Of a DNA stretch of 52,505 nt, positions 3,867 to 50,300 are shown piece by piece (positions within the stretch are counted from its first letter, which is position 1; each line of letters begins with the position of its first letter). The DNA comes from Candidatus Omnitrophota bacterium (GTDB lineage: Bacteria > Omnitrophota > Gorgyraeia > M55B152), in contig JAGYNU010000002.1 of the NCBI GenBank assembly GCA_018399975.1, positions 1-52,505 on the forward strand, read 5' to 3'. A program made the position numbers and the translations under genes. The notes beneath the pieces are model-generated. The model had not been told where the DNA came from. It did no database searches and was given only the letters and a program-made list of their open reading frames with translations.

Positions 3867-4089
3867 AACCCCACGGGGCAAGCCCTGTGAAATATACTTT
3901 TGTATTTCACGGGGCAAGCCCGTGGTACCTTTATGTACCCGTCTTCGCCAAACACTTATTGTGTTTGGCTTCGCCGAGGTTATCCGCCAACACATTTAGG
4001 TGGCTCCTTCATTTGGTGACATCTCGCCGAAGCATAACTTTCGCATTCATCCACGGGGAAACCCGTGGTTTTCTGCGAAGGCGGATAAA
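3867..4089. repeat. 223-bp multi-hairpin interspersed element, copy A
   Basis: Near-identical to 16247-16469. Shorter derivatives lie at 45643-45830 and 46160-46202. It is GC-rich relative to its surroundings and ends 5 nt from the stop codon at 4095. Confidence 0.9.
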
Positions 4090-7800: not shown

Positions 7801-7922
7801 CGCAGATTGGCACAGATTTTTAAAACACCACACAAGATTAGCACAGATAAATGATCAAGATACAATTATTTAATATTCAAACTAATACTTTTATTTGGTC
7901 ATTGTAATTTGGTTATTCTCAT
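7801..7922. repeat. ~125-bp conserved repeat core, copy I (CACAGAT words ... ATTCTCATG)
   Basis: Aligns with 17089-17229 and 27921-28050 with only a few substitutions or small indels. A partial copy lies at 41840-41890. Confidence 0.9.
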
Positions 7923-8185
7923 GTCCTATGTCCTAGGTCCTATGTCCTAGGTCCTATGTCTTGCTACTTGCTACTTGCTACTTGTTACTTGTTACTTGCT
8001 ACTTGTTACTTGCTACTTGTTACTTGTTACCTGTTACCTGTTACCTGTAACCTGTAGCTTGTAGCTTGTTTTTCGTCATTCGTCATTCGCCTGCCTGCCG
8101 GCAGGCAGGGATTTCGTCATTTGTTTGTTACTTGTTACTTGTTACCTGTTACCTGTAACCTGTAGCTTGCAGCTTGTAGCTTGTA
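7922..8185. repeat. Phase-locked tandem heptamer arrays (TGTCCTA > CTACTTG > TTACCTG > TAGCTTG), split by TCGTCAT words and a palindrome
   Basis: 21 consecutive in-phase 7-mers at 7922-8068. A second array lies at 8123-8185. The region ends 10 nt before the stop codon at 8196. Confidence 0.9.
8090..8109. repeat. 20-bp perfect palindrome CCTGCCTGCCGGCAGGCAGG
   Basis: A second full copy lies at 17124-17143. Left-half copies lie at 17075-17088 and 27907-27920. It is absent from otherwise identical flanks at 28190-28200 and 41955-41965. Confidence 0.9.
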
Positions 8186-8195
8186 TACTCTGTTT

Positions 8196-8438
8196 TTAGT
8201 CAGGTGTATCTATAATTGCCAAATTATTTCCAACAACTACCTTTTCTCCTTCCTCGACACAACGCTCAAGAAGAACTCCTGCAATAGGACTAGTTATGCT
8301 ATAAGTATTCTCCGCAGAACTTATTTCTATTAAATCATCCCCTATTTCTATTTCTTCATCCTCTTCAAAATACCAGTAAGTAACAATGCCCTCTACTATT
8401 TCATCATTTATAGGAGAAAAACGAATTTCTTCCTCCAT
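8196..8438 (-). CDS. Lipoyl/biotinyl-attachment-like domain protein lacking the modifiable lysine (80 aa)
   Basis: The sequence EGIVTYWYF..IGDDLIEISSAENTYSITSPIAGVL..GEKVVVGNNLAIID aligns to the lipoyl-domain pattern, with E in place of the lipoyl-lysine. AAAGGAGA SD is present and the start is coupled to the mdh stop. Confidence 0.6.
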   Translation of the reverse strand: MEEEIRFSPINDEIVEGIVTYWYFEEDEEIEIGDDLIEISSAENTYSITSPIAGVLLERCVEEGEKVVVGNNLAIIDTPD

Positions 8439-16208: not shown

Positions 16209-16246
16209 ACGAATTTCCTCCCAATAAAAATTCTAAAAAATAATGA

Positions 16247-16469
16247 AACCCCACGGAGCAAACCCTGTGAAATATACTTTTGTATTTCACGGGGCAAGCC
16301 CGTGATACCTTTATGTACCCGTCTTCGCCAAACACTTATTGCGTTTGGCTTCGCCGAGGTTATCCGCCAACATATTCAGGTGGCTCCTTCATTTGGTGAT
16401 ATCTCGCCGAAGCATAACTTTCGCATTCATCCATGGGTAAACCCGTGGTTTTCTGCGAAGGCGGATAAA
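16247..16469. repeat. 223-bp multi-hairpin interspersed element, copy B (between rpsM and rpsK)
   Basis: Same length and orientation as copy A with scattered substitutions. It ends 6 nt from the rpsM stop at 16476. Confidence 0.9.
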
Positions 16470-16853: not shown

Positions 16854-16868
16854 TACTTACTCCTTTTT

Positions 16869-16945
16869 TAATGAGAACATAACTTAGCGAACAAAGTGAA
16901 GCTAAGTTATTTGTTCGAATTAAATCCGCCATTTTTTGTGGCGGA
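16869..16945. repeat. Leader hairpin module (TAATGAG - bulged 12-14-bp hairpin - GAATTAAATCCGCC-loop-GGCGGA), copy at the rpsM 5' region
   Basis: Stem GAACATAACTTAGC / GCTAAGTTAT(TT)GTTC. The same architecture with different stems is found at 22645-22716, 41211-41288, 41299-41381 and 45544-45597. Confidence 0.8.
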
Positions 16946-17229: not shown

Positions 17230-17420
17230 GTCCTATGTCCTATGTCCTATGTCCTAGGTCCTATGTCCTATGTCCTACTATGTCCTAGGTCCTATGTCTT
17301 GTTACTTGTTACTTGTTACTTGTTACCTGCTACCTGTTACCTGCGACTTGTAGCTTGTAGCCTGTAGCCTGTAGCCTGTAACTTGTAGCCTGCAACTTGC
17401 AGCCTGTAGCTTGTAGCTTG
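17229..17420. repeat. Tandem heptamer array, 27 units with one 3-nt slip
   Basis: Direct reading. It has the same order of word families as 7922-8068 and 28050-28178. It ends 2 nt from the rpmJ stop codon. Confidence 0.9.
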
Positions 17421-17422
17421 TT

Positions 17423-17536
17423 CTATCCTTGTCTCTGTTTATGCTTAGGATTAATACAAATAACTCTAACTACACCTTTACGCTTTATTATTTTACAATT
17501 ATCACACATTTTTTTAACAGAAGCTTTTACTTTCAT
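17423..17536 (-). CDS. rpmJ: 50S ribosomal protein L36 (37 aa, zinc type)
   Basis: Hand translation gives [37 protein letters not shown]. It is too short for the ORF track. It occupies the canonical position between infA and rpsM. Confidence 0.9.
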
Positions 17537-22082: not shown

Positions 22083-22622
22083 CTAAGCAATTGCTTTACC
22101 AACTTTTCTCCTAACTCTTTCGTTTTCATACCTGATACCTTTACCTTTATAAGGTTCAGGTTTATAAAATTCTCTTATTTCAGCCGCAACTTCTCCAACT
22201 TTAGCCTTATCAATACCAGAGATTATCAACTCTTTATTCTCTCCAATCTTAATCTCAATATCTTTAGGAATATTATAATTAATCGGATGAGAAAAACCTA
22301 ATTGCAATTCAAGAATTTTCCCTTTAACCTGAGATCTAAAACCTACTCCTTCAATAATTAACTTTTTCTCATAGCCCTCTTTTACACCTAATATCATATT
22401 TTGTATAAGCGATCGAACTAAACCATGTAAAGACCTTACATTCTTTGATTCACTTTTTCTTTCTACTATAATGCTTTTATCATTTTTATCTACCGATATT
22501 TTAGTATTAGGTATCTTATACTCAAGTTCACCCTTTGGGCCTTTAACGGCAATCATCCTTCCATTTATTTTTACTTCCACACCATCTAAAATTTCAATTG
22601 GTTTTTTTCCTACTCTAGACAT
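22083..22622 (-). CDS. rplF: 50S ribosomal protein L6
   Basis: N-terminus MSRVGKKPIEI. AAGGAG SD upstream of ATG 22622. The track start is over-extended into the leader module. Confidence 0.95.
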   Translation of the reverse strand: MSRVGKKPIEILDGVEVKINGRMIAVKGPKGELEYKIPNTKISVDKNDKSIIVERKSESKNVRSLHGLVRSLIQNMILGVKEGYEKKLIIEGVGFRSQVKGKILELQLGFSHPINYNIPKDIEIKIGENKELIISGIDKAKVGEVAAEIREFYKPEPYKGKGIRYENERVRRKVGKAIA

Positions 22623-22644
22623 CCCTATTTCTCCTTTAATGTTC

Positions 22645-22716
22645 AATGAGGTCATAATTTACGGAATTTTGTCGTAAATTATATGACCAAATTAATCCGC
22701 CAATTTTTATGGCGGA
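22645..22716. repeat. Leader hairpin module, copy at the rplF 5' region
   Basis: AATGAG, then stem GGTCATAATTTACG / CGTAAATTAT(AT)GACC, then AAATTAATCCGCC-loop-GGCGGA. Confidence 0.8.
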
Positions 22717-27920: not shown

Positions 27921-28050
27921 AACACAGATTATCACAGATTTTTAAAACACCACACAAGACTAGCACAGATTAATGATCAAGATACAATTATTTAATATTC
28001 AAACTAATACTTTTGTTTGGTTATTGTAATTTGTTATTTGTCATTCTCAT
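27921..28050. repeat. ~125-bp conserved repeat core, copy III
   Basis: Aligns to copies I and II. It is preceded by the half-palindrome at 27907-27920. Confidence 0.9.
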
Positions 28051-28384
28051 GTTCTAGGTCCTATGTCCTAGGTCCTAGGTCCTATGTCCTATGTCTTGCT
28101 ACTTGTTACTTGTTACCTGTTACCTGCTACTTGCAGCCTGCAGTTTGTAGCTTGCAGCCTGCAGCTTGTAGCTTGCAATTCGTCATTCGTCATTCTGATT
28201 TCGTCATTTGTTTGTAACTTGCAATTTGCAATTTGTTTGTAATTTGTTATTTGTCATTTGTAATTTACTTGTATCTTGTATCTTGTATCTTGTTACTTGT
28301 ATCTTGCCTGCCCCGTAGCACCCGCAGGGTTGGTACGGAGTTTTCTGTTTTCTGTTTTCTGTCTTCTGTTTTCTGTTTTCTGTC
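28050..28384. repeat. Heptamer arrays (TGTCCTA > CTACTTG > TTACCTG > CAGCCTG > TCGTCAT words > TGCAATT/TGTAATT/TGTATCT), one GC hairpin (28311-28340), then a TTCTGTT array abutting the rplW stop
   Basis: The 7-nt period is readable over more than 250 nt. This is the spacer between rplW and rplB. Confidence 0.9.
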
Positions 28385-30399: not shown

Positions 30400-32466
30400 T
30401 TAATCCAGCAACTTCTTAGCAATATTATCTGGAACTTCTCTATAATAAGCAGGCTCCATCATATAAGTAGCACGGCCCTGAGTTAACGACCTTAATGCAT
30501 TAGTATACCCAAACATTTCAGCTAAAGGAACAACCGCTCTAATATACTTGACATCTTTTTTTTGTTCAATCGAACTTACATGTGCCCTACGTGAACTTAA
30601 ATCATTTATTATGTCCCCCATATATTTATCCGGAGTAACTACTTCTAAATCCATGATAGGTTCTAAAATTATTGATTTTGTTTTTCGCAATCCATCAGTA
30701 AAAGCTTTACTGGCTGCAGTCTTAAAAGCAATATCAGAAGAATCAACAGGATGATGTGAACCATCTATTAACTCAGCACGGATATCGGTTACTGGATAAC
30801 CTAATAAAACACCATTATTTGCAGCAGACATTACTCCAGATTTTATGCTCTTAATAAATTCCTTAGGTATAACACCTCCTTTGGTATTATCTTTAAATTC
30901 AATACCGCTACCATGTTTTAAAGGAACTAATCTAAATACTACATGCCCATATTGGCCTCTACCCCCACTTTGTTGAACAAATTTACATTCTGCATCAACT
31001 TCTTTTTTAATAGTCTCTTTATATGCTACTCTCGGATTACCAACATTAGCATCAACATTAAATTCTCTAAGCATTCTATCAATTAATATTTCTAAATGTA
31101 ATTCTCCCATGCCAGATATCAAAGTCTGACCTATTTCTTCGTCATAAAAAACTTTAAAAGATGGATCTTCTTCAGAAAATTTATGTAAAGCTTCCGAAAG
31201 TTTTTCTCTATCTTTTTTTGAATTCGGTTCGATTGCCATAGAAACAACTGGTTCTGGAAAATGTATGCTTTCTAAAATTATTGGACTGCCTTCACTGCAA
31301 ATCGTATCCCCTGTATTAGTTTTTTTTAAGCCTACTGCTGCTGCTATATCTCCAGCAAAAACACTATCTCTAATTTCCTGTTTATCTGCATGCATTTGGA
31401 CAATTTTCCCTATACGTTCCTTGATATGTTTATTACTATTGTATACATAACTTCCTGATTTTAATATACCTGAATACACTCTAAAAAAAGTTAATTTACC
31501 AACATATGGATCAGTCATTATTTTAAATGCCAAACTACAAAATTTACCTTCATCTTCCGGATGACGTTCTTCTTTATCTTCAGTATTTGGATTAATACCA
31601 AAAACTGCAGGAACATCCAAAGGAGAAGGCAAATAATCAGTAACAGCATCTATAAGCAGCTGTACCCCTATATTTTTTAAACTTGAACCACATAGCACAG
31701 GAACTATATCATTTTTAAGAGTAGCTTTTCTTATACCTTTTTTTATCTCTTGTATACTAATTTTCTCACCATGTACATATTTTTCCATGAGAGTATCATC
31801 ATTTTCGCTTATTTTTTCAATCATATAGTTTCTATAATTTTCAGCTTTTTTTAATAAATCTCCTGGAATATTTTCTTCTCGATAATTTTTCTGTTTTAAT
31901 TCTGTATCGAAAATAAAAGCTTTCATATTTAATAAATCTACTACCCCTTTAAATTTATCTTCACTACCTATAGGAATCTGTAATGGTACAGGTTGAACAA
32001 ATAGCTTTTCTTCTATTTCTTTAACCACATTATAAAAATCACTTCCTATCCTATCTAATTTGTTTACAAAAACTATCCTTGGAACATGATACTCATCAGC
32101 CTGTCTCCAAACTGTTTCACTTTGAGGTTCCACTCCCCCTACCCCACATAATACTACTATAGCACCATCTAAAACCTTTAGGGACCTTTCAACCTCAACA
32201 GTAAAATCAATATGTCCTGGTGTATCGATTATATTAATTCTGTTATCTTTCCAAAAACAGGTTGTGCTAGCAGCTGTAATAGTTATACCCCTCTCTTGCT
32301 CTTGCTTCATCCAATCCATGGTAGCTGTTCCTTCATCAACTTCGCCCATTTTATATACACGGCCTGTATAATATAAAATTCTTTCGGTAGTAGTAGTCTT
32401 ACCTGCATCGATGTGTGCAACTATCCCTATATTACGTATCTTATCCAAAGCTATTTTTCTTTCCAT
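30400..32466 (-). CDS. fusA: Elongation factor G (canonical, str-operon copy)
   Basis: Motifs [23 protein letters not shown] and NKLD. Preferred start is ATG 32466 ([14 protein letters not shown]). An alternative in-frame ATG lies at 32517. Neither has a clear SD. Confidence 0.93.
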
Positions 32467-32554
32467 TTTTTTTAGTATCTTTTTTTTTGGTTTATTTATT
32501 CCTGCAGCTAATTGCATAATATCAATCTATCTATTCTTCTATAATTATTTTCTT

Positions 32555-33436: not shown

Positions 33437-36400
33437 TTATTTATCATTTACTGTTTCTTTTTCTTGCTCATTATTAGAATCTTTCTGTTTTTCAATTTCT
33501 CCTATTAACGAAGAAACATCTTTCTTTACCTTAATTTCACGATTTTGCCTAAATCCTGTCCCTGCAGGAATTAAATGTCCCATTATAACATTTTCTTTAA
33601 GTCCATACAAGTTATCAGTTTTACCACTTGCAGCTGCATCCGTTAAAACTCTTGTTGTTTCCTGAAAACTAGCTGCAGATATAAAACTTTCTGTAGTCAA
33701 AGACGCTTTGGTAATTCCTAATAATAAAGGAGACGCGCTAGCCGGTTTCCCCTTATTTTCTCTAACTTTTTGATTTTCTTCTTTAAAACAAAATTTATCG
33801 ATATGTTGTCCAGGTAAAAAATCAGTATCTCCAGGGTCTTCTATCTTAACCTTTCTAAGCATTTGTTTTATAATTAACTCAATATGTTTATCATTTATTT
33901 TAACACCTTGTAATCTATAAACTTCTTGAACTTGATCTAATAAATATTTCTGCAATTCTTTTTCACCGCGTATGTTAAGGATATCATCAGGAACTATTGG
34001 ACCATCGGTTAAACGGTCCCCACTTGAAACCTTATCGCCTTTATATACATTTAAATGTTTTCCATGTGGAACCAAATACTCCTTTTTCATTCCAGAAGGC
34101 GATTGAATTATAACCCTTCTTTGCCCACGTTTAGCACTACCAAATTCCACTACACCATCGATTTCACTAATTACTGCGGGGTTTTTTGGCTTTCGGGCTT
34201 CAAACAGTTCTGCAACCCTTGGTAATCCTCCTGTAATATCTCTAGTTTTGGTAACTTTTCTAGGAGTTTTTGCCAAGATAGTCCCAGCTTTAACTTTTTG
34301 ATTTTCCTTTACTGCGATATGAGCTCCAGCTGGTAATGGATAAATAGCCACAACATTATTCTTTTTATCCAAAATTAATATCTGCGGATGGAAATCCACA
34401 GAATGTTCTATAATAACTTGTCCAGTTATACCTGTAGCCTCATCAATTTCTCTATGAGAGGTCTTACCATCAACAATATCCTCAAATTCTATCTTACCTT
34501 CTACTTCTGTTAGTATAGGAGACGAATAAGGATCCCATTCTACAAACTTATCACCTTTTTGAACTTTATCTGACTCTTTTACATTTAAAAATGCACCTTG
34601 TGGAATAACATGTCGTTCTAATTCAATGCCTTCTTCATCATTTATACTAATTTGAGAATTTCGATTAAGAACTATAAACTTTTTCTTTGAAACAGAAACT
34701 ATTCTTAATCCATGAAATACTATTTTCCCATCATGCTTAGATTCTATAAAAGATTGCTCCACAATTCTACTAGCAGTTCCTCCAATATGAAAAGTTCTCA
34801 TAGTTAACTGAGTACCAGGCTCTCCAATTGACTGAGCAGCAATTACACCTACAGCCTCTCCTGCTTCTACAAGACGACCATTTGATAAACTAGTACCATA
34901 ACATTTCGAACAAACGCCCCTTGAAGCTTCACAGGTTAGAACACTTCTAATTTTTATTTTTTCGATACCTAATTCCTGAATCCTATTTGCTTTCTTCTCT
35001 GTTATAACTTCACCCGATTTTACTATTACTTCATCTGAAACAACATCAACTATGTTATCAGCAGCAACTCTACCTACAATTCTTTCCTTTAAACTTACTA
35101 CTATTTCATCACCTTCCACGATGGCTTCTACATAAATGCCATTTAAAGTGCCGCAATCTTCCTCAGTAACAATAACATCTTGTGCAACATCGACTAAACG
35201 TCTTGTTAAATAACCTGAGTCAGCTGTTTTTAAAGCCGTATCAGCTAATCCTTTTCTACCCCCATGAGATGAAATAAAATATTCTAATGAAGTTAATCCC
35301 TCTCTAAAACTCGAAATAACAGGACTTTCTATAATTTCTCCTGAAGGTTTAGCCATTAAACCTCTCATACCTACTAATTGTCGAATTTGTTGTTTAGAAC
35401 CCCTTGCTCCTGAATCAGCCATCATAAATAAAGGATTAAATTTATCTAAATGTTTAAAAACTGAATCGGAAACCTGTTCTGTAACATGAGTCCATATATC
35501 TACTATTTTATTATAACGCTCCCCTGCCGTTATTATCCCTTGCTCGTAAGATTTCTCAACTTCGCCAACTTTTTTATAAGCTTCCGTTACAAGTTCTTCT
35601 TTATCTTCTGGAATAACTAAATCACTAATAGACAAAGAAGCTCCTGAATAAGTAGCTTCTTTAAAACCTTTTTCTTTAACTTTATCCAATAATTTAACAA
35701 CCGCATCATATCCAAATTCTTCATAACAGTTTTTTATTACATCAGATAAAGCTGATTTATTTAACAATTTGTTAACAAAATTCATTTCTTTAGGCAAAAT
35801 ATCATTAAAAAGTACTTTACCAACAGTTGTTTCAATTAATTCAGAATTTATTCTTACTTTTATACTTGCATGCATATGTACTGCTCCATCTTCATATGCA
35901 GAAATGACTTCAGCAGTGTTAGAAAACATTTTACCTTCGCCTTTAACACCTTTTCTCATCTTCGTAAGATAATACAAACCAAGCACTATATCCTGCGTTG
36001 GAGAAACAATCGGACCTCCATGAGCAGGAGAAAATATGTTGTTACTGGATAACATCATTAATCTGGCTTCCATTTTAGCTTCAGCAGATAAAGGAACATG
36101 TACAGCCATTTGGTCACCATCAAAATCTGCATTAAAAGGCGTGCAAACCAATGGATGCACTTTTATAGCTTTACCTTCTACTAAAATAGGCTGAAATGCT
36201 TGTATTCCTAATCTATGTAAAGTAGGTGCACGATTCAATAATACTGGATGCCCCTTAATAACCTCATCTAATATATCCCATACTTCTACTTCTGTACGTT
36301 CTACCATTTTCCGAGCGCTTTTAATAGTATGGACATGCCCTCTCTTCTTTAATTCCTTTATAATAAAAGGCTCAAATAATTCTAAAGCAATTCTTTTTGG

Positions 36401-39400
36401 CAAACCACATTGATGCAATTGCAATTCCGGCCCAATGACTATAACGCTCCTACCAGAATAATCTACTCTTTTACCTAATAGATTTTGTCTAAATCTACCT
36501 TGTTTACCTTTAAGCATTTCACTTAAAGATTTTAGAGGCCTATTACCTGCCCCCATAACGGGACGGCCATGTCTTCCATTATCAAACAAAGCATCAACAG
36601 CTTCCTGTAACATCCTTTTTTCATTTCTAATTATTATCTCAGGAGCATTAAGTTCCATTAATTTCTTTAGGCGGTTATTTCTATTAATCACTCTTCTATA
36701 CAAATCATTTAAATCACTAGTAGCAAATCTCCCTCCATCTAAAGGAACTAAAGGCCTTAAATCCGGAGGGATAACAGGAATAACGTCCATAACCATCCAA
36801 GATGGTTCATTCCCTGACTTTTTAAAAGATTCTACAATTCTTAATCTTTTCAATACTTTTTTTCTAACTTGTTTACCACGTTTTCTCTTAGCTTTACTAT
36901 GCAAATCAGTTGCTAATTCATTTAAATCTAAATTCCCCAACAATTCTCTTATAGCTTCTGCTCCCATTTTAGCAGTAAAGCTTTTACTATATTTAGCCTT
37001 TGCCTCTCTATATTTGTTTTCTGATAATAAATCTCCTGTTTTAAAAGGACTATCTCCCGGGTCTATTACACAATACTCCTCGTAATAAATAACCCGTTCT
37101 AATTGTCTCATACTCATGCCTAATAAAGCTCCCATTCTAGAAGGCATAGTCTTAAAAAACCATATATGAGAAACAGGAGAAGCAAGTTCTATATGCCCCA
37201 TCCTTTTCCTTCTGACATCAGATGTGGTAACTTCAACCCCGCATCTGTCGCATATTATCCCTTTATTTTTTATTCTCTTATATTTTCCACAATAACATTC
37301 CCAGTCTTTGGTAGGACCAAAAATCCTTTCGCAAAATAAGCCTCCTTTTTCTGTTTTTAATGTTCTATAATTAATAGTTTCTGGTTTTGTTACTTCACCA
37401 TGAGACCAAGATCGAATCACATCAGAAGAAGCTATATTTATACGTATAGAATTAAAATCACCATCTTTTGATATAGAATCTTTGTCAAAATCTTGCTCTG
37501 TACGAATATCTAAAGCCAAACCCATAAGTTCTTTAATCAATACATTAAAAGATTCAGGTGTCCCTGTTTGCAAAGAACAATCGCCTTTTACAATATTCTC
37601 GTATATACGAGTGCGTCCTTTAACATCATCACTCTTAACTGTCAATAACTCCTGTAACATATAAGCAGCACCATAAGCTTCAAGTGCCCATACCTCCATT
37701 TCCCCGAATCTCTGCCCTCCGTATTGAGCTCTACCTCCTAAAGGCTGCTGTGTAACCAAAGAATAAGGGCCAATAGAACGAGCATGAATCTTTTCATCAG
37801 CTAAATGTATTAACTTCAATACATACATATAACCAACGGTTATTTTCTGGTCAAAAGGCTGTCCTGTTAAACCATCATAAAGTATAATTCTTCCATCTTC
37901 TGGCAACCCAGCCTTTCTTAACAATTCTTTTATTTCTTCTTCATTAATACCTCCAAAAACAGGCGTAGCTACATATTTATTTAATATCTCAGCTGCCCAT
38001 CCTAAATGAGTTTCTAAAACCTGTCCTATATTCATACGCGAAGGAACCCCTAACGGATTTAAAACCATATCAACTGGAGTTCCATCTGGTAAAAATGGCA
38101 TATCTTCTTCAGGCAATATTCTGGCAACAACCCCCTTATTGCCATGTCTACCAGCCATTTTATCTCCCACAGACAGCTTTCGTTTACTTGCTATATAAAC
38201 AACCACCCGTTTTATAACCCCTGGTGGTAATTCATCTGCTTTTTTCACCTTATCTATTTGTCTTTCTTGTTCATAAGTCAAATCATCTATTTGATCATTA
38301 AATAATCTTAAAACTTTCTCGATTTCTTCATTTATATCATCATTTTTTAATTCAATTTCATCTACATCACAATTGACTAATTTTTTAATATCAGTTTTAG
38401 TTATTTTCTTTCCCTTTTCAATAATAGGCTTACCTGTATTAATATCAAGTAAATCAGCAGCTAATGTATGGCCTTCTATTATTTCCCCTACTCTACTAAT
38501 TTTCCCCTTTAAAATATCATCAATTTTACCTTGATATTCTTCTTCAATTTCTTTTATACGAGCTCTTTCTTTAGACCTTTGAGATTTAGTGCGAGCAGGC
38601 TCCTTTCTGGAAAAAACTTTTGTATCTATAACGATACCTTCTACACCAGAAGGAACTTTTAAAGAAGCATCGCGTATATCTCCAGCTTTTTCGCCAAAAA
38701 TAGCTCTTAACAATTTTTCTTCTGGAGTAAGTTCTGTCTCCACCTTAGGAGTAATTTTCCCTACCAAAACATCTCCTGACTCTACTTTAGCTCCTACCCT
38801 AATAATCCCATCTTCATGTAAATCTTTTAAAGCTTCTTCTCCTACATTAGGAATATCTCTAGTAATCTCCTCTGCCCCTAATCTAGTATCTCTAGCTTCA
38901 ATCTCAAATTCTTCAATATGAACAGAAGTATAAACATCATCTTTAACTAACCGTGAACTAACTAAAATAGCATCTTCAAAATTATGTCCATGCCAAGACA
39001 TAAAAGCTACTAAAACATTTTTACCTAAAGCAATTTCTCCTTCTTTTGTAGCAGGTCCATCTGCTAATATATCTCCTTTTTTTACCTTAGCCCCAATAGA
39101 TGTCACTGACCTTTGATTAATACAAGTATTGGCATTAGAACGTTTAAATTTTTTTAGTTTATAATCTGTAGAACCAACTGTTATAGTACTACCATCTATA
39201 TAATTTACATTACCAGAATTTTTAGCTATAATTAAAGCTCCTGAATCTCTTCCAACTTTTTCCTCCATGCCGGTTCCAACCAATGGTGGTTCAGGAAATA
39301 ATAACGGAACAGCTTGACGTTGCATATTAGCTCCCATAAGAGCACGGTTTGTATCATCATGTTCTAAAAAAGGAATCAAACTGGCATCAACGCTAACAAT

Positions 39401-41194
39401 CTGTCTGGGAGAAACATCTATATAATCTATTTCTTTAGGAGATACACTAATAACATCCTGTTTATACCTACATTTTACTTGTTTATCCAAAAATTTTCCC
39501 TTATTATCTAACCTTGCATTGGCTTGAGCTATAATTTTGTTATCTTCTATATCAGCAGTTAAATACTCAACCTTTTTTGTAACTATACCTTTTTCAACCT
39601 TTCTATAAGGAGATTCCAAAAAACCCAATCTGTTAACTTTAGAAAATGTAGTTAAAGTTGTAATTAAACCAATATTAGGGCCTTCTGGAGTTTCAATAGG
39701 ACAAATCCTTCCATAATGCGAATGGTGAACATCACGGACTTCAAAACCAGCTCTTTCTCGGCTTAACCCCCCTGGGCCTAATGCACTAAGTCTACGTTTA
39801 TGTGTAGTCTCAGCTAAAGGATTAGTCTGATCCATAAATTGTGACAATCTACCTCTACCAAAAAAATCTCTAATTACCGATGATACTAACTTTGTATTAA
39901 CCAAGTTTTGAGGCATCATAGTCTCAGTATCATATATATTCATTCTCTCCCTAGCAGAACGAGCTACTCTCGCTAAACCTACCTGTATTTGATTAGCTAA
40001 AAGTTCGCCAACTGTCCTTATTCTCCTATTACCTAAATGGTCAATATCATCTACTTCTCCCTCTCCTCTTCTTAAATTCAAAAGATATTTTACAGCTTCA
40101 ATTATTACTTTTTTATCTAATTCTCTTTTATCATCAGAAAAATTTGTATTAAATTTTCGATTAATAATAAACCATCCAACTTTGCTCATATCATACCTTT
40201 TGGAGTCAAAAAACATTCTATTTAACAAAGATTTGGCATTTTCTTCAGTAGGAGGGTCTCCTGGGCGAAGCTTTCTATACAATGCCAACAAGGCTTCTGT
40301 TTGATTTTTGGTATTATCTTTCTCAAAGGAATTTCTAATTTCAACAAAATCATTACTAACTAATTTTATTTGCTTAACTTTTACATTTTTTAACTTGTTT
40401 CTAATCAACTTATTGGTAATTTTAGTTAATGCCGGAACAACTATCTTCTCCTTCTTTTCACCATTTTTATCCTCTAATATTGTTTCTTTAATAGGTTCTG
40501 CAAGCACTTTATCTAAATATTTTTTCCATTGTGAACTCCTCTTTATACTTACATTTTCTATTCCGCATATCTCTTTTAAAATATCTTGATCAGTCGAATA
40601 CCCAAGAGCACGCAAAAATGTAGTAAAAACAAATTTACGCCTTCTATCAATATAAACATTTAATCTATTTGATTTATCAAATTCAAATTCTATCCATCCG
40701 CCTCTATAAGGTATAATACGAGCAGAAAATATACTTTTCCCTCTAATTCTAGTTGTTTCACCAAATGACACTCCAGGAGATCTATGTAATTGATTAACAA
40801 CGACTCTATCATCGCCATTTATAATAAAATTACCTTCTTCGGTCATTAATGGCAAATCTCCAAAATAAACTTCTTGTTCTTTAATTTCTTTATCAGAACG
40901 TAATCTTATTTTTGCTTTTAAAGCACCTGCATAAGAAAAACTTCTTTCCCTAGCTTCTTCTTCACTATATTTAGACCTATCTATAGTGTAACTAATAAAT
41001 TCTAAAATATATTTACCATCAAAACTCTCTATGGGAAAAATATATTCAAAAATAGCCTGTAAACTTTTATTTTCCCTTTTCGTTTTAGGAACATCAAACT
41101 GTAAAAAATCCTCATATGACTCCACCTGAGTTGCAACTAAATTTGGCAAGCTAAAAACTTCTTTTGTTTTACCAAAATTTAGTCTTGTAATCAT
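33437..41194 (-). CDS. rpoBC: Fused DNA-directed RNA polymerase beta-beta' subunit (2585 aa)
   Basis: One uninterrupted 7758-nt ORF. Residues 1 to ~1234 carry beta motifs ([27 protein letters not shown]). Residues from ~1247 carry beta' motifs (zinc [14 protein letters not shown], catalytic [12 protein letters not shown]). The linker [12 protein letters not shown] is encoded at ~37455-37495. AAGGAGAGG SD precedes ATG 41194. Confidence 0.9.
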
Positions 41195-41210
41195 AATTAA
41201 TCCTCTCCTT

Positions 41211-41511
41211 TAATGAGACCATGATTTACACGACTATAAGGAGTGTAAATCATATGGTCGAATTAAATCCGCCAATGTTTGTGGCGGATATAGCCCACTA
41301 ATGAACACATGATTTAGAGAGTTCAAGCGAATCTAAATCATATGTGTGAATTGAATCCGCCGTAGCTTTAGCGTAGGCGGAAGTTCATAATTTACGGAAA
41401 TCCTGTCCGCCAATGTTTGTGACGAAAGCATATAACTTAGCGAATCCTTCGATTTTACTCAGGATAAACAAAGTGAAGCTAAGTTATATGACCGAATTTT
41501 ACCCGCCAAAG
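41211..41511. repeat. Four tandem leader hairpin modules (two full, one truncated, one long-loop) in the rplL-rpoBC spacer
   Basis: Module positions are 41211-41288, 41299-41381, 41385-41428 and 41429-41511. Each has a bulged hairpin with its own stem sequence plus a CCGCC-loop-GGCGG hairpin. Confidence 0.8.
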
Positions 41512-41839: not shown

Positions 41840-42056
41840 AAACCACAGATTATCACAGATTTCTAAAACCACACAAGATTAGCACAGAAATTGAAACCTG
41901 CAGCCTGAAGTTTGCAGCATGTAGCTTGAAGCTTGCAGCTTGTTTCTTTTCGTCATTCGGATTTCGTCATTTGTCATTTGTTTTCTTTCTGTTTTCTGCC
42001 TGCCCCGTGAAATCTTATTTCTACGGGGTTATCTGTCTTCTGTCTTCTGAATAAAC
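41840..42056. repeat. Partial core, TGCAGC-type heptamers, TCGTCAT words, hairpin CCCCGT-N14-ACGGGG (42003-42028) and TCTGTCT units abutting the rplL stop
   Basis: Direct reading. The hairpin recurs as its exact reverse complement at 49998-50023. Confidence 0.85.
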
Positions 42057-42728
42057 TTACTTTAATTCTACTTTAGCACCTACGCTTTCAAGTTTAGATT
42101 TAACTTCTTCTGCTTCTTCTTTAGAAACTTGTTCTTTAATTGGTTTTGGTACAGATTCTACTAAATCTTTAGCTTCTTTAAGTCCTAAAGTAGTTATAGT
42201 TCTTATTTCTTTTATGACCTGAATCTTTTGCGAGCCCACCTCAGATAAAATTACATCAAAAATATCTTTTTCTTCTTCTTTTTCTGATTCAGCAACTCCT
42301 GTAGCACTTCCAGCGGCTGCCGGAGCTACTGCTGGGATAGCACTAACACCAAACTTTTTTTCTAATACTTTAACTAAATTGGAAAGTTCTATAACATTCA
42401 TTTTTTCAATAGAATTAACAATTTTTTCCATGTTTTCAGACATATCTATGTTTTCTTCTTCTACTTCTTGTTGAGTGTCATCTTTTTTCTCTTTTTCTGT
42501 GGTTTCAGCTTTTTTATCTTTTTTGGTATCAGATTCTTTTTTATCTGATTCTTTAATATTCTTATCCTCTTCTTTCTTACCTTTATCATCGATAGAGGAA
42601 TCTTTATCTTGTTTTTCGGTAGATTTCTTTGTTTTATCTGACACTTTTTCCTCTTTTTTCTTTTTTAGTTCTTTATCTTCGTTTTCTTTTGCTTTTTGCA
42701 CTTGTTTTGTTTCTTTTTCTTCAGCCAT
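42057..42728 (-). CDS. rplL: 50S ribosomal protein L7/L12 with ~95-aa Lys/Glu/Asp-rich N-terminal extension (223 aa)
   Basis: A canonical L12 sequence occupies the last ~128 aa ([29 protein letters not shown] ... [10 protein letters not shown] ... GAKVELK). A perfect AAAGGAGG SD precedes ATG 42728. No SD precedes the internal ATG 42443. Confidence 0.9.
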
Positions 42729-43303: not shown

Positions 43304-43987
43304 TTAGCTAAGTTTAATTCTTATTCCAGGGCCCATAGAACTTGTTAAAACTATCTTTTTAATAAAACCTGCTTTAATCGAAGCAGGTTTATTTAATTGT
43401 ACTGCAGAAATCATAGCTTTAGCATTTTCAACAATCTGATTTTTATCGAATGAAAGTTTTCCTATGGTCACATGTATATTCCCCCCCGAATCCATTTTAA
43501 ACTCAATTTTACCTTTTTTAAGCTGCTGGATAGCATCAGATAAATTATCAGTAAGTGTACCTGCTTTAGGATTTGGCATCATTCCTCGAGGTCCTAAAAT
43601 TTTTCCCAAGCTACTTATATCTTTCATCATAGAAGGAACAGATACTGCAATATCAAAATCTAACCAACCTTCCTGAATCTTTTTAATTAATTCTTCGCCA
43701 CCTGCATCTATTGCCCCGGCTTTTTTAGATTCTTCCACCAAGTTATCCTTACAAAACGCTATAATTCTTAGTTCTTTTCCAGTTCCATGCGGTAAAACTA
43801 CTGTGCCTCTTACAATCTGGTCAGACTTTTTGGGGTCGGCATTCAAATTAAAACTCAATTCCAAAGTCTCATCAAATTTACAAGAAGGGAATTGTTTTAA
43901 AATATTAACTGCTTCCTCTATGTCATATGCCTTTTCAAAATCTATATCTTTAATACCCTCTATATATCGTCTACTATGTTTTGTCAT
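43304..43987 (-). CDS. rplA: 50S ribosomal protein L1
   Basis: Sequence DPKKSDQIVRGTVVLPHGTGK. ATG 43987 is preceded directly by heptamer repeats with no SD. Confidence 0.95.
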   Translation of the reverse strand: MTKHSRRYIEGIKDIDFEKAYDIEEAVNILKQFPSCKFDETLELSFNLNADPKKSDQIVRGTVVLPHGTGKELRIIAFCKDNLVEESKKAGAIDAGGEELIKKIQEGWLDFDIAVSVPSMMKDISSLGKILGPRGMMPNPKAGTLTDNLSDAIQQLKKGKIEFKMDSGGNIHVTIGKLSFDKNQIVENAKAMISAVQLNKPASIKAGFIKKIVLTSSMGPGIRIKLS

Positions 43988-43990
43988 ATT

Positions 43991-44153
43991 ACTGGTTTCT
44001 GGTTACTGGTTTCTGGTTTCTGGTTACTGGTTTCTGGTTACTGGTTACTGGTTTCTGGTTACTGGTTACTGGTTACTGGTTTCTGATTTCTGGTTTCTGG
44101 TTACTGGTTACTGGTTTCTGGTTTCTGGTTTCTGATTTCTGGTTTCTGGTTTC
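43991..44153. repeat. Tandem heptamer array ACTGGTT/TCTGGTT/TCTGATT (~23 units)
   Basis: Direct reading. It fills the whole rplK-rplA spacer and encodes the last 26 codons and the stop codon of the rplK ORF. Confidence 0.95.
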
Positions 44154-44585
44154 TATTATTTCTACCCCCATACTTCTAGCAGTTCCTTTAACTGTTTTAA
44201 TAGCAGATTCTAAATCTACCGCGTTTAAATCTTCCATTTTTTCCTTTGCTATCTTTTCTACCTGATTTTTAGTTAAACTGGCAACTTTTTCTTTATTAGG
44301 AACTCCAGAAGCTTTTGCTATACCACATTCTTTTTTTATCAAAACAGGGGTAGGAGGATTCTTAACTACAAAAGAAAAACTCCTATCTGCATAAATTTCT
44401 AATACAACAGGTAAAGTTAAACCCGGCCTATCTTTAGTTTGTTCATTGAATTGTTTGCAAAAATCCATTATTTTTACACCATATTGGCCTAAAGCAGGAC
44501 CAACAGGCGGCGCAGGATTCGCTTGCCCCCCTGGACAATAGAGCTTAAGTTTAGCCATTATTTTCTTTTTTTTCTTTTTAGCCAT
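44073..44585 (-). CDS. rplK: 50S ribosomal protein L11 with 26-aa repeat-encoded C-terminal tail
   Basis: Motifs [14 protein letters not shown] and [12 protein letters not shown], then [25 protein letters not shown] read from the heptamer array. Confidence 0.93.
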
Positions 44586-45447: not shown

Positions 45448-45466
45448 GACTATTTATATCTGACAG

Positions 45467-45541: not shown

Positions 45542-45543
45542 TT

Positions 45544-45597
45544 TAATGAGTACATCATTTAGCAAATCTAAATAAAGCTAAATGATATGCACGAATT
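45544..45597. repeat. Leader hairpin module abutting the 5' end of tRNA-Trp
   Basis: TAATGAG, then stem GTACATCATTTAGC / GCTAAATGAT(AT)GCAC, then GAATT. It lacks the CCGCC hairpin. Confidence 0.75.
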
Positions 45598-45642
45598 TTA
45601 CTCACTACCTAATTTTCTTGATTTTTAGACAATTAAAAATAA

Positions 45643-45830
45643 AACCCCACGGGGCAAGCCCTGTGGTACCTTTATGTACCCGTCTTCGCCAAACACTTAT
45701 TGTGTTTGGCTTCGCCGAGGTTATCCGCCAACACATTTAGGTAGCTCTTTCATTTGGTAACATCTCGCCGAAGCATAACTTTCGCATTCATCCATGGGTA
45801 AACCCGTGGTTTTCTGCGAAGGCAGATAAA
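45643..45830. repeat. Multi-hairpin interspersed element, copy C (188 bp, internal 35-bp deletion)
   Basis: Collinear with copies A and B, but lacks the segment between the two CACGGGGCAAGCCC direct repeats. Confidence 0.9.
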
Positions 45831-46159: not shown

Positions 46160-46202
46160 AACCCCACGGGTAAACCCGTGGTTTTCTGCGAAGGCGGATA
46201 AA
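46160..46202. repeat. Multi-hairpin interspersed element, mini copy D (43 bp)
   Basis: The left end AACCCCACGGG is joined directly to the right end TAAACCCGTGGTTTTCTGCGAAGGCGGATAAA. It abuts the tuf stop codon (46203) with zero spacing. Confidence 0.85.
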
Positions 46203-47405
46203 TTATTCTATTATCTCAGATATTACGCCAGCACCTACTGTTTTTCCACCTTCTCTTATAGCAAATCTGAGTTCTTTTTCCATAGCTATAGGTTCAATTA
46301 ATTCAGCATCTACATCAACATTATCCCCTGGCATAACCATCTCAACTGATTCAGGCAATTTCACTACACCAGTAACATCCGTAGTTCTAAAATAAAACTG
46401 AGGCCTATATCCATTAAAAAAAGGAGTATGCCTACCTCCTTCTTCTTTGCTTAATACATAAACTTTTGCTTTAAATTTAGTATGAGGGGTAATACTTCCA
46501 GGAGCTGCGATAACTTGACCTCTTTGTAATTCATCTTTTTCTACTCCTCTTAAAAGAATTCCTACATTATCTCCCGCTTGTCCATAATCTAAAGTTTTCT
46601 TAAACATTTCTACTCCGGTAACAACAGTTTTTCTAGGTTTATCCATTAATCCAACAACTTCAATTTCCTCTCCAACTTTCACTTTACCTCTTTCGACACG
46701 ACCGGTTCCAACTGTTCCCCTCCCGGTAATAGAAAAAACATCTTCTACTGCCATTAAAAATGGTTCATCAACACTACGTTTAGGTTCTGGAACATAATCG
46801 TCAATAGCTTTTACAAGTTCAACTATAGGACCGCATTTATCACAATCCTCTTTTCCACAACCACATTCCATAGCCTGAAGAGCACTCCCTTTTATAACTG
46901 GAGCATTGTCGCCATCAAATTCATATTTACTTAAAAGTTCTCTAACTTCTAATTCAACCAATTCCAATAATTCCTCATCATCTACTTGGTCAATTTTATT
47001 TAAAAATACTAATATAGCAGGAACTCCAACTTGGCGTGCCAATAATATATGTTCTCTCGTCTGAGGCATTGGCCCATCTGCAGCACTTACCACTAAAATA
47101 GCTCCATCCATCTGTGCGGCTCCAGTAATCATATTCTTAATATAATCAGCATGACCCGGACAATCTACATGAGCATAATGTCTTTTTTCAGTTTCATATT
47201 CTACATGGGCTATGGCTATGGTAATACCTCTTTCTCTTTCTTCAGGAGCTTTGTCAATCGAATCAAATGATCTTACCTCTGCAAAACCCTGCTTAGATAA
47301 AACCTCTGTCATAGCAGAAGTTAAAGTAGTTTTCCCATGGTCTACATGTCCAATCGTTCCGATATTTAAATGAGGTTTAGTCCTTTCATATCTTTCCTTT
47401 GCCAT
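46203..47405 (-). CDS. tuf: Elongation factor Tu
   Basis: Motifs [17 protein letters not shown] and NKID. AAGGGAGG SD upstream. Confidence 0.97.
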
Positions 47406-47676: not shown

Positions 47677-49719
47677 TCATTTTTCCTTTTGTTTTTTTGA
47701 CTCCATTATAACTTTTTCAGCCAAATTAGATGGTATTTGCTCATAATGTGAAAATTTCATTGAAAAAGTTCCCCTACCACCGGTTATCGACTTTAACTCA
47801 GAAGCATATTTAAGCATTTCACTTAAAGGCACTTTTGCATTTATAACCTGCGTTAAACCTTTAGCTTCCATACCCATTATGCGCCCACGCCTAGAATTCA
47901 AATCTTTATTTATTTGTCCCATAAAATCTTCCGCAACCATAATATTAACATCCATAATAGGCTCCAATAAAACTGGCTTTGCCTTTTTTACTCCATCTTT
48001 TAATGCCATGGCACCTGCAATCTGAAATGCCATATCAGAAGAATCTACACTATGATATGAACCATCATACAAAACAGCTTTAAAATCTACCAATGGATAA
48101 CCAGCAACAACTCCCTCTTGCATAGCATTTCTTACACCTTTTTCTACTGAAGGAATATATTGCCTTGGGATAGCTCCTCCAGTAATACTATCTTCAAACT
48201 CAAAACCTTTTCCTCTTTCTAAAGGAACTAATCTTAAGCACACATCACCATACTGTCCATGGCCACCTGATTGTTTTTTATATTTATGTTGAATTTCCAC
48301 TGTAGACATTATAGTCTCTTTATAAGGAACTTTGGGAGTTCCTAATTTTACATTTACTTTAAATCTTTGTTTTAATTTACTTGCAGTTATTTCAAGATGC
48401 AAATTCCCCATACCTGAAATCAATAATTCTTTAGTTTGTGAATCTCTTGAAACTTTAAAAGTCTTATCTTCTTTTGTTATCTTTTTTAAGGACTGTGAAA
48501 TCTTCTTTTCATCTTCGCGAGACTCTGGAGTAATAGAATAAGATAATACAGGTTCAGGAAATTTTATCTCTGGAAAAACTATTTCTTTTGAACCATCACA
48601 AAAAGTATCAGATACATCGGTATCCTTTAACTTTGCAACCGCTACAATACTTCCAGCAATAGCAGTCTCTAAAGGTTTTTGCTCTTTACCCTGTAGCAAA
48701 TACAACTGGCCTAATTTTTCCACTGAAGATTTATTGATATTTTTAACTTGAGAATTAGAATTTACCTTACCAGACAAAACTCTAAATATTGAAAGTTGGC
48801 CTATATAAGGATCTATCTGTGTTTTAAAAACCCTTGCATAAAAATCAAAATCTTCTTTATGCTCGATATCAACTTTTTCTAATTCCTCACTATCTGTATC
48901 TTTTTTAACAAAAGCTTGGCTTGCCTTAACTTCACTTGGAGATGGTAAAAATTGAATCATATACTCGGTAAACTTATTTATACAACTTTTATTACCTGCA
49001 GAACCAGAAAATATTGGAATTATCTTGTTTTCTGAAACTGCTTTTTTCAATCCTATAGTCAATTGTTGTGTTGTTAATTCTCCCTTTTCTAAATATTCTT
49101 CTAATAAATCATCTTGAGTTTCAGCAATCGCCTCTATTAACTCTTCTCGTGCAGAAGATATATCTATATCTAAATTAGTTTTAATTTCATTATCAAATAG
49201 AGGTTGAGAATTATGATAATCCTTACCAACTCCATCTGGAATATTAAAAAGTATACAATTTTTACCAAAGTTCTTTTTGATTTCATCAACAATAACTGAA
49301 AAATTTATATTATCTAAATCAAGCTTATTAATAAAAATAAACCTGGGTAAATTCCTTTCCTTTAAAAAAGACCACATTTTCTCGGTACCTATTTCTACTC
49401 CGCTAGTAGCATCTACCAGAAGTATTGCAGAATCAACTGCTTCTAAGCTTGCGATAACTTCACCTATAAACTCTAAATATCCAGGCGTATCAATCAAATT
49501 AATAGTATAGTCATTTTGCGTAAAAGAAAAAATAGAAGAGTTAATAGATATTGCCCTTTCTTGCTCTTCTTGGGTATAATCGCTTACCGAAGTTCCTTCC
49601 TCGGCTTTCCCTAATCTGTCAACAATTCCAAAATTATAAGCCAACATATCAGTTAGCAAAGTTTTACCAGCTCCTGTATGAGAAACCAAAGCAATATTTT
49701 TAATTTTATCAACCATCAT
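47677..49719 (-). CDS. EF-G paralog (EF-G II-like translational GTPase, 680 aa)
   Basis: Five-domain EF-G architecture with divergent G motifs: VSHTGAGKT, DTPGYLEF (Tyr in place of the catalytic His) and NKLD. GGAGG SD upstream. Confidence 0.85.
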   Translation of the reverse strand: MMVDKIKNIALVSHTGAGKTLLTDMLAYNFGIVDRLGKAEEGTSVSDYTQEEQERAISINSSIFSFTQNDYTINLIDTPGYLEFIGEVIASLEAVDSAILLVDATSGVEIGTEKMWSFLKERNLPRFIFINKLDLDNINFSVIVDEIKKNFGKNCILFNIPDGVGKDYHNSQPLFDNEIKTNLDIDISSAREELIEAIAETQDDLLEEYLEKGELTTQQLTIGLKKAVSENKIIPIFSGSAGNKSCINKFTEYMIQFLPSPSEVKASQAFVKKDTDSEELEKVDIEHKEDFDFYARVFKTQIDPYIGQLSIFRVLSGKVNSNSQVKNINKSSVEKLGQLYLLQGKEQKPLETAIAGSIVAVAKLKDTDVSDTFCDGSKEIVFPEIKFPEPVLSYSITPESREDEKKISQSLKKITKEDKTFKVSRDSQTKELLISGMGNLHLEITASKLKQRFKVNVKLGTPKVPYKETIMSTVEIQHKYKKQSGGHGQYGDVCLRLVPLERGKGFEFEDSITGGAIPRQYIPSVEKGVRNAMQEGVVAGYPLVDFKAVLYDGSYHSVDSSDMAFQIAGAMALKDGVKKAKPVLLEPIMDVNIMVAEDFMGQINKDLNSRRGRIMGMEAKGLTQVINAKVPLSEMLKYASELKSITGGRGTFSMKFSHYEQIPSNLAEKVIMESKKQKEK

Positions 49720-49860: not shown

Positions 49861-50300
49861 TAATTGACCTAATTGACCTAAATTAGCTCATAGCTCTTAG
49901 CTCATAGTAAAGAAAGAAACAAGAAAGATACAAGATACAAGAAAGATACAAGTAACAAGTCGCAGGTAACAGGTAGCAGGTAACAAGTAATAAGTTACCC
50001 CGTAGAAATAAGATTTCACGGGGCAAGCAAGATACAAGATGCAAGATACAAGAAAGATACAATAACCAAGATACAAGATACAAACAAATTACAATATACA
50101 ATAAACAAATTACAAATGACAAATTGACCTAATTACTTTAAAACAAGTAGAGAGTAGAAAGTAGGAAGTAGAGAGACAAGGACATAGCCCGTGAACCAGA
50201 GATTTATTTTATAAATCACGGTTCAGGGCTAGGGTGAACCGTACTTCGTTCTGGTTCCCCCTAGGACATAGGACATGAGAATTACAAATGACAAATCAAG
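49861..50300. repeat. Repeat island in the divergent spacer
   Basis: Contains AATTGACC words and AGCTCAT heptamers. The CTTGTTA/CCTGTTA families and TGTCCTA-ATTCTCATG appear here as reverse complements. Also contains hairpin 49998-50023, AGTAGAG heptamers (50146-50187) and two GC hairpins (50192-50264). Confidence 0.85.

Follow-up and report, generated by a model that had tools for sequence, protein, structure and literature searches.

A palindromic repeat family at gene boundaries in Omnitrophota

In the first 52,505 nucleotides (nt) of contig JAGYNU010000002.1 of a Candidatus Omnitrophota bacterium (GenBank assembly GCA_018399975.1; this whole stretch is hereafter ‘the window'), a stable hairpin recurs directly upstream of ribosomal protein genes, the RNA polymerase gene and tRNA-Trp. 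The feature is real, far beyond chance, and is one arm of an interspersed palindromic repeat family that, among the sequences searched, is restricted to Omnitrophota. The units are covarying hairpins that are arranged head to head and lie flush with Shine-Dalgarno (SD) sequences or AUG codons, with stop codons and with tRNA ends. [quoted passage not shown] The family is apparently undescribed: no account of such an element in Omnitrophota was found in the searchable literature or in Rfam.

The window has a G+C content of 32% and carries on its minus strand tRNA-Thr, tuf, tRNA-Trp, secE, nusG, rplKAJL, rpoBC, rpsLG, fusA and the S10-spc-alpha genes, in the classical order; uS13, uL6, uS11, uL2, L7/L12, SecE, EF-Tu and a fused RpoB/RpoC of 2585 amino acids (aa) were identified by NCBIfam. 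The exact pattern AATTYRNNCAWATNAYTTAS-N(9-39)-STAARTNAT has six matches in the window, all on the minus strand, compared with 0.00 expected from shuffled sequences, and a covariance model (R1) run over the whole window with filters off returns the identical six copies and zero further ones. Single-sequence folding of the window copies yields hairpins of −15 to −22 kcal/mol with z-scores of −3.9 to −6.2, as stable as an earlier annotation of this DNA (the original prediction) had supposed, and independently gives the identical closing helix. The copies are listed here with the small second palindrome, P1, that accompanies some of them (type A is so named in contrast to a type B variant, described below):

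16868..16923 (−), type A hairpin unit 5' of rpsM; CTCATT at 16875-16870, paired AA at 16869-16868, SD GGAG at 16863-16860, ATG at 16853; R1 71.8 bits; −15.3 kcal/mol, z −5.0
16926..16944 (−), P1, small palindrome CCGCCA..TGGCGG immediately 5' of the rpsM unit; together with the downstream TTTAATT it has a terminator-like score
22643..22695 (−), type A hairpin unit 5' of rplF; CTCATT at 22650-22645, SD GGAG at 22634-22631, real ATG at 22622; R1 62.2 bits; the L6 profile starts from residue 13 of the longer open reading frame (ORF)
22697..22715 (−), P1, small palindrome CCGCCA..TGGCGG 5' of the rplF unit; P1 and the ~50 nt upstream of it share 88% identity with the rpsM spacer (family D19)
41210..41266 (−), type A hairpin unit immediately 5' of the fused rpoBC; CTCATT at 41217-41212, SD GGAGAGG, ATG at 41194; R1 70.5 bits; −19 kcal/mol, z −6.2
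41269..41287 (−), P1, palindrome CCGCCACAAACATTGGCGG, separating the second from the first rpoBC-proximal unit
41298..41354 (−), second tandem hairpin unit upstream of rpoBC; ends in TTCATTAG and adjoins the next repeat unit, with no adjoining SD or gene; R1 63.4 bits
41413..41506 (−), third, degenerate unit upstream of rpoBC, with a long loop insert and without CTCATT; R1 27.8 bits
45466..45541 (−), tRNA-Trp (CCA anticodon); placed at 45466/7-45541 by ARAGORN and Rfam, +1 at 45541, the 5' end lying 3 nt after CTCATT
45543..45599 (−), hairpin unit at tRNA-Trp, the copy from which the original prediction started; CTCATT at 45550-45545, AAA at 45544-45542, tRNA +1 at 45541; R1 63.5 bits; the terminal two pairs are unformed

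On the minus strand, the junctions read GTTCTCATTAAAAAAGGAGTAAGTAATG at rpsM, GGTCTCATTAAAGGAGAGGATTAATTATG at rpoBC, GACCTCATTGAACATTAAAGGAGAAATAGGGATG at rplF and GTACTCATTAAA, then AGGTGAG, at tRNA-Trp; re-inspection of the sequence found all four exactly as first quoted. The generalisation drawn from them, namely that the module always ends in CTCATT next to an SD and once at tRNA-Trp, holds for four of the six window copies and fails for the two distal units upstream of rpoBC (41298-41354 and 41413-41506). The longest rplF ORF begins at an ATG within the 3' arm of the hairpin (22622-22655, minus strand), the SD-preceded start being at 22622, so that the conserved TTATG inside the repeat can create false upstream start codons in annotation.

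Distribution and hairpin structure

A pattern scan over one genome per species detected at least 117 loci (denoted by L and a number), on which the counts of context, arrangement and orientation given below rest. R1 confirms 106 of these loci and finds 197 copies in 820 kb of them; about 80 of the 197 do not match the original exact pattern, which makes for a less biased sample. By our own count of accession prefixes, at least ~75 assemblies are represented, and the core hairpin sequence is nearly invariant over ~75 species. A rough extrapolation suggests that a genome probably carries on the order of a hundred copies.

Among the matches listed, nearly all are labelled as Candidatus Omnitrophota metagenome-assembled or single-amplified genomes; two complete genomes, that of Ca. 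Velamenicoccus archaeovorus LiM (L084) and CP070780 (L036), are among them. Nine matches labelled as other phyla, which have no strong R1 match, look like chance matches to the pattern, and some matched ‘uncultured Planctomycetia' bins are probably mislabelled. High-scoring units are also present on contigs from a Methanobacteriota archaeon bin (L043, JAHIFK010000021.1) and a WOR-3 bin (L027, JAGMEL010000084.1), both of which are probably mis-binned Omnitrophota contigs; the archaeal bin is worth noting because a cultured member of Omnitrophota preys on methanogens. R1 finds 0 copies in 770 kb of S13-containing control loci from other bacteria. These negative controls came from a metagenome scan with S13, which retrieved only distant relatives (at most 65% identity), none of them with the module; a look-up of proteins identical to the S13 of the window gave no entry. 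When Rfam 15 is applied to the window, only two tRNAs score above the gathering threshold, and permissive Rfam scans of two module regions gave chance-level matches only (E above 1).

The structure was derived from an alignment (A2) of 105 copies from the window and other genomes. The unit is an imperfect hairpin of 55-75 nt that consists, in 5' to 3' order, of T-N-AAU, a UC·UC loop, 5 base pairs (bp), a 2-nt bulge, 9 bp, a second UC·UC loop, a variable tip and the returning arm that ends in AUU-N-A. At the foot, T-N-AAU pairs with AUU-N-A, followed by the UC·UC 2×2 internal loop and the 5-bp helix, which includes the pair between the R of AATTCR and the Y of YTCATT; the bulge (WA) is restricted to the 5' arm, and the distal part comprises the 9-bp helix, the second UC·UC loop and a stem and loop that are both variable. 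The ATT of CTCATT pairs with AAT and the following two bases pair with the T-N of the 5' foot, T-N-AATTC. The original prediction envisaged a hairpin followed by an AU-rich single strand, CTCATT-AAA; this premise was wrong, because CTCATT and the next two bases belong to the helix. Between the foot of the hairpin and the SD, AUG or tRNA there are 0-2 unpaired bases.

Standard pairs fill 95% of the cells of the alignment, compared with 79-81% in shuffled alignments and 25-42% when the partners are slid by 1-3 columns, and changes on both sides of a pair occur in 280-345 cells compared with 73-91 in the shuffles. The free stem positions accept three to five pair types each (columns 8:83, UA 38, AU 28 and CG 21; columns 16:75, GC 53, CG 31 and AU 15). 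In the type B variant, AAGTTC...TCACTTA, the closing helix has G:C in place of U:A, a compensatory change. In 150 model-aligned copies, G·T/T·G mismatches (18) and A·C/C·A mismatches (27) jointly account for less than 2% of the stem cells. The covariation is strong, but neither tolerance of G·U on the transcribed strand nor a single orientation relative to transcription is observed. In a sub-variant, a further small hairpin (CAGACGGCC-loop-GGCCTAYG) is inserted where the 2-nt bulge would be (L093 6760-6830, L069 6314-6394, L096 6235-6317, L094 4185-4282 and L113 375-459).

Gene junctions and arrangement of the units

Gene context was assessed with a crude ORF caller and ARAGORN. The outer end of type A lies within 30 nt of a co-oriented start in 67 cases, abuts the stop codon of a convergent gene in 26 and lies beside a tRNA end in 5; the outer end of type B abuts a convergent stop in 14 of 21 cases. 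The overlap with convergent stops is exact, the codon being either a TTA that uses the last T of CTCATT or a TCA within CTCATT, and type B usually makes a TAA stop with its own last T. At tRNAs, 5' ends are 0-3 nt away on the same strand and 3' ends are 0-2 nt away on the other strand. Across the loci of the phylum, adjacency to an SD or start is thus the commonest context, as the original prediction would have it, but the other contexts are present as well; its suggestion that SD-like sequence (AAAGGAG) is a specific target fails, since the identical outer end also adjoins convergent stop codons and tRNA 3' ends.

The distance from CTCATT to the start codon is 11-18 nt where an SD is present (61 cases, mode 14) and 1-4 nt where there is none (~25 cases), with almost nothing between the two classes. 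In L093, a Hainich Omnitrophota contig to whose RpoB and RpoC the window RpoBC is 63-67% identical, both rpoC and rpsG lack an SD and start 3 nt after CTCATT. The 165-nt spacer between rpoB and rpoC of this contig runs from stop-TAA-GTGAAG (an inverted type B unit) through P1 and a type A unit to CTCATTAAA-ATG; this ATG opens RpoC, the N-terminus of which aligns with the fusion protein of the window. In the window, rpoB and rpoC form one ORF of 2585 aa (33437-41194, minus strand), and in L093 (3-6219) each has an ORF of its own, the two being separated by a pair of repeat units.

In co-directional spacers, 84 copies are in the sense orientation and 54 of 138 (39%) are antisense. Copies occupy 32 of the 158 spacers of at least 120 nt and 1 of the 381 spacers shorter than 60 nt (the spacer that recruited each locus was excluded), and about 6% of gene junctions carry a copy. 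This low occupancy indicates that the element is not a general requirement for expression. Ten neighbouring ORFs are ordinary genes without a transposase domain.

P1 lies immediately 5' of T-N-AATTC and varies in sequence and length, its 3' arm ending in GGG-R; its form in the window is a small hairpin, CCGCCA...TGGCGG. Of the units, 46% are accompanied by an inverted repeat of at least 9 nt that ends 2 nt before AATTC, compared with 3-7% at control offsets. In many loci, a second, inverted unit is found on the far side of P1, so that the units point outward, with their AATTC ends inward and their CTCATT ends outward. Adjacent units less than ~260 nt apart form 37 head-to-head pairs (AATTC ends facing P1), 2 tail-to-tail pairs and 16 tandem pairs. 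Units and P1 often make up most of the intergenic spacer; ‘half elements' (P1 with one unit) and tandem arrays are common, and in divergent spacers (L048, L084) each gene has its own outward-facing unit. At L094 4051-4743, six units of alternating orientation lie within 700 nt with no gene between them, in a BIME-like cluster beside a gene for a HipA-like kinase. The composition is mosaic: the rpsM and rplF copies of the window have in common 73 nt upstream at 88% identity (D19) and yet have different hairpins.

Occupancy is patchy and non-orthologous between species. L093 has units at rpoB-rpoC, rpsL-rpsG and rpsG-fusA, where the window has the gene fusion at the first site and spacers of 15-40 nt at the other two. 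In L012, a unit lies immediately before the orthologue of ORF 7275-7760 of the window; there is none at this position in the window or in L102.

A repeat family and alternative readings

The best explanation of these observations appears to be a DNA-level repeat family. Such a family would multiply and be lost by insertion, duplication or recombination, and its copies would survive only where no gene is damaged, which in compact genomes would mean right up to the gene boundaries; compact spacers account for part of the gene adjacency. Copies within operons, such as the ribosomal-protein operons of the window, are presumably co-transcribed. Where a type A unit is in the sense orientation, the ribosome-binding site or AUG would then follow at once on a stable hairpin, which would most likely act as a 5'-end protective or processing hairpin, and antisense units just after stop codons might serve as 3' hairpins. 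P1 may end or pause upstream transcription, given that P1 with TTTAATT is terminator-like in the rpsM spacer.

The stem mismatches bear directly on the level at which the palindrome is maintained: selection on the RNA of one strand should tolerate G·U but not A·C, so that the lack of an excess of G·T over A·C points to maintenance as DNA. The many antisense copies, the non-orthologous occupancy, the mosaic structure and hints of differences between strains likewise speak for an origin and upkeep of the palindrome at the DNA level. The mobile module that the original prediction entertained is to this extent supported, and agrees better with the evidence than the RNA processing or 5'-stabiliser signal that was its other idea, the family being interspersed, mosaic, variable in copy number and non-orthologous between species; neither a target-site duplication at the flanks nor, at the loci examined, a transposase was found. 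Comparison with relatives at orthologous sites gives two candidate differences in presence or copy number between related strains, each with a caveat. In the first, position 138 of L084 is joined to position 284, with ‘TA' between them, on a metatranscriptome contig that shares 96% identity with Ca. Velamenicoccus; the join removes exactly an inverted unit, P1 and a sense unit (AATGAAG...CTCATTC) and leaves the SD intact. A search for RNA runs found none for the window or for a Hainich locus; the single run found for Ca. Velamenicoccus (X4) contains no contig resembling the module and belongs to a strain without the module at that site. In the second case, a DNA contig (X2) ~87% identical to the window has one unit upstream of rpoBC, compared with three in the window.

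Several observations weigh against a repeat family as the whole explanation. Reverse transcriptase could have skipped the palindrome in the RNA-derived Velamenicoccus contig, although a genomic difference is more likely because of the two extra letters and the 4% divergence; in X2 the hairpin is a hybrid that contains a C·C mismatch, and the contig may be a chimera of the assembly. No target-site duplication was found at the flanks or at the candidate empty site: the outer ends are inverted (AATGAG...CTCATT) and the T-N-A triplets on the two flanks are frequently identical (TAA/TAA), but no other triplet is as common as TAA in any case and several pairs are unlike, and the candidate empty site reads TCA-TA-AAGG, with no clear duplication. 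No transposase or REP-associated tyrosine transposase (RAYT) gene is present among the ten neighbouring ORFs or bracketed by inverted units at the loci examined, among which only one minus/plus pair of units is more than 300 nt apart. Conservation of the core over ~75 species is unusual for REPs or MITEs. Furthermore, there is a strong excess of type A at starts and of type B at stops (Fisher p = 1e-5), the start distances fall into two sharp classes, and, as judged by N-terminal sequences, the module is 5' of purH in three loci and of ribH in two. The two spacing classes suggest selection on expression rather than tolerance alone, and random selfish insertion would not produce these patterns or the essential genes without an SD that sit 1-4 nt after the hairpin; selection on expression would, therefore, act as well.

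Alternatively, the module would be a dedicated, vertically inherited punctuation signal in RNA. A cut at or near the foot of the hairpin or in P1 would free cistrons and tRNAs, leaving them either a 5' end that the hairpin protects or a leader of very few nucleotides, and the mRNAs of genes without an SD would be leaderless or nearly so. The immediate proximity of the hairpin foot to the SD, AUG or tRNA +1, the two classes of start distance, rpoC and rpsG of L093, the phylum-wide core and the start bias of type A all speak for such a signal. We nevertheless hold it to be rather unlikely, since G·U is not preferred to A·C, the copies antisense to co-directional genes would yield RNA with GA·GA instead of UC·UC loops, copies occur at few gene junctions and only ~20% of long spacers, and the sites are non-orthologous between species. 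A broader proposal, that the type A hairpin is a phylum-wide punctuation of expression, in which cleavage at the foot or an internal transcription start gives mRNAs a standard very short leader or none and tRNA precursors leaders of 0-3 nt, and in which rpoC and rpsG of some species depend on the hairpin instead of an SD, is a tentative possibility that merits attention but not preference. A promoter embedded in the hairpin, with weak −35-like (YTTASN) and −10-like (TAARTN) hexamers in the arms and a start in or just after CTCATT, would similarly produce very short leaders or leaderless mRNAs and tRNA precursors, and would explain why the SD, AUG or tRNA follows at once. TAAGTT/TAAATT has the T, A and final T in 110 of 165 copies with a spacer of 13-17 nt in 68%, and the outward-facing units of divergent spacers fit as well. 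The mode of the spacer is, however, 15 rather than 17 nt, only 30% of the spacers are 16-18 nt and 25% are 19 nt or longer, up to 76; the −35-like hexamer matches at only 3-4 of 6 positions; positions within both hexamers covary for pairing, which a promoter does not need; about a third of the copies face stop codons; copies lie between rpoB and rpoC and inside ribosomal-protein operons; and a generic scan shows no enrichment of promoter-like sites. A hairpin promoter is, accordingly, improbable. Inspection of the sequence also disposes of a −10 box for a leaderless start at the ATG, positions −12 to −7 being TGCGCT-like with no A at −11.

The two remaining readings treat the module as a binding site. 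If the palindrome is read as duplex DNA, it could be an operator or be bound by a nucleoid protein, for example; such a double-stranded site would suit the symmetric arrangement around P1 and the lack of a strand-specific wobble signature, but the distance between the arms ranges from 10 to 76 nt, and the 2-nt bulge, which is fixed and on one side only, and the mismatched UC·UC positions are suited to a folded single strand rather than to a site for a dimer on duplex DNA, which makes this explanation very unlikely. Only the slimmest chance is left to a Nus-factor antitermination or regulatory site of the boxB-boxA kind, in which the hairpin would be boxB and GCUCAUUAA a variant of boxA (compare GCUCUUUAA). 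The sequence GCUCAUUAA agrees with the E. coli boxA core at 8 of 9 bases, and the module precedes rpoBC, ribosomal-protein genes and a tRNA in the window; the ‘GC' of the putative boxA is, however, a variable, base-paired part of the stem (columns 75-76), CTCATT itself is paired, and copies precede many unrelated housekeeping genes and are also found antisense. There is no single-stranded boxA with the invariant GCUCUUUA core: GCTCATTAA is boxA-like but paired, with two variable bases. Two other readings of the conserved hairpin were rejected, an intrinsic terminator because it is followed by A-rich or SD sequence with no T run (unlike P1 in the rpsM spacer), and an integron attC site because the R''/R' cores (RYYYAAC...GTTRRRY) are missing from the consensus and the flanking genes are housekeeping genes rather than promoterless cassette ORFs.

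Other window features and relation to known systems

The window contains other repeats and gene features of its own. In the ribosomal-protein operons, several spacers are occupied throughout by long arrays in which a 7-nt unit (CTTGTTA, CCTGTAG, CTGGTTT and the like) is tandemly repeated; the arrays are located at 7881-8198, 17247-17428, 28037-28307, 41889-41993, 43941-44168 and 49903-50120, the last being the reverse complement of the others. A second repeat of ~250 nt is present in three copies that are 71-90% alike (3830-4089, 16210-16469 and 45571-45830) and in a partial copy (46164-46206). It includes several GC-rich hairpins (CCACGGGTTTACCCGTGG, CCACGGGCTTGCCCCGTG) and has no Rfam match; one copy is just upstream of the tRNA-Trp module, one is between rpsM and rpsK, and the first 43 nt recur directly after tuf. 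The rplL ORF encodes 223 aa (42057-42728, minus strand), of which the L7/L12 profile spans residues 96-223 only, which points either to ~95 additional residues at the N-terminus or to a start codon called too far upstream. Besides fusA at 30400-32517, there is a second gene for an EF-G-like protein (680 aa; 47677-49719, minus strand), located upstream of tRNA-Thr and tuf.

In organisation, the family is closest to REP/BIME and to hairpin-forming MITEs such as Correia elements. REP/BIME sequences of gammaproteobacteria are mobilised by RAYT transposases and have a conserved GT(A/G)G head 5' of the palindrome (PMC2817692). The Omnitrophota family resembles them in being composed of abundant extragenic imperfect palindromes with compensatory changes, located in transcribed spacers and variable in copy number, and in having two subtypes (A/B, cf. 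Y/Z), alternating orientation and mosaic composites in high-copy clusters; about 200 copies are present in 870 kb. The differences are equally definite: the 5' flank consensus is GGG-R-T-N-AATTC, with no GTAG or GTGG; the units are 55-75 nt long, compared with ~21-40 nt in REPs, and are AT-rich, with a bulge and with internal loops at fixed places; the core sequence is conserved throughout the phylum, whereas REPs are species-specific; the units lie preferentially flush with gene starts, whereas REPs follow gene ends; and no RAYT gene was found at the loci examined.

With MITEs, as generally reviewed (PMC10969869), the family has in common small non-coding units, inverted ends and closeness to genes. 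It differs in that no TA or other target duplication was found and in that each ‘terminal repeat' is an independent covarying hairpin with a variable loop, with half elements and tandem arrays common. The Correia (nemis) elements of Neisseria provide the comparison for hairpin-forming MITEs, and the family is, like them, presumably co-transcribed, forms long hairpins and may be present or absent between strains (two candidate cases here). The subterminal hairpins of IS200/IS605 elements, which are recognised as single-stranded DNA by Y1 transposases, are also imperfect and strand-asymmetric, with a conserved bulge and conserved flanking bases; the Omnitrophota units, unlike these, have no nearby tnpA or tnpB and no defined cleavage tetranucleotide, and they face each other head to head across a palindrome instead of marking either end of an element that carries genes. 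A further parallel is with 5' stabiliser or insulator hairpins and intercistronic RNase III sites, as in the early mRNA of phage T7 and in engineered Csy4 sites upstream of ribosome-binding sites, where a stable hairpin likewise lies directly 5' of the ribosome-binding site between the cistrons of long operons; the Omnitrophota element is also found antisense and beside stop codons.

Omnitrophota are an uncultured, ultra-small, possibly predatory phylum and, to our knowledge, nothing is known of their gene-expression signals. The family marks a sizeable share of Omnitrophota gene boundaries (roughly a fifth of the long spacers), including those in core operons with rpoB/rpoC, ribosomal proteins and tRNAs. 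Were it nothing more than a repeat, the family would be useful for binning and strain typing and would be a source of annotation errors. Of the possibilities raised, a part for the hairpin in RNA processing holds the most interest. Should the hairpin also fix mRNA 5' ends or the choice of start codon, it would represent a new kind of SD-independent translation initiation, and punctuation of this type, if true, would be nature's equivalent of engineered RNA insulators, with a repeat able to spread as its carrier.

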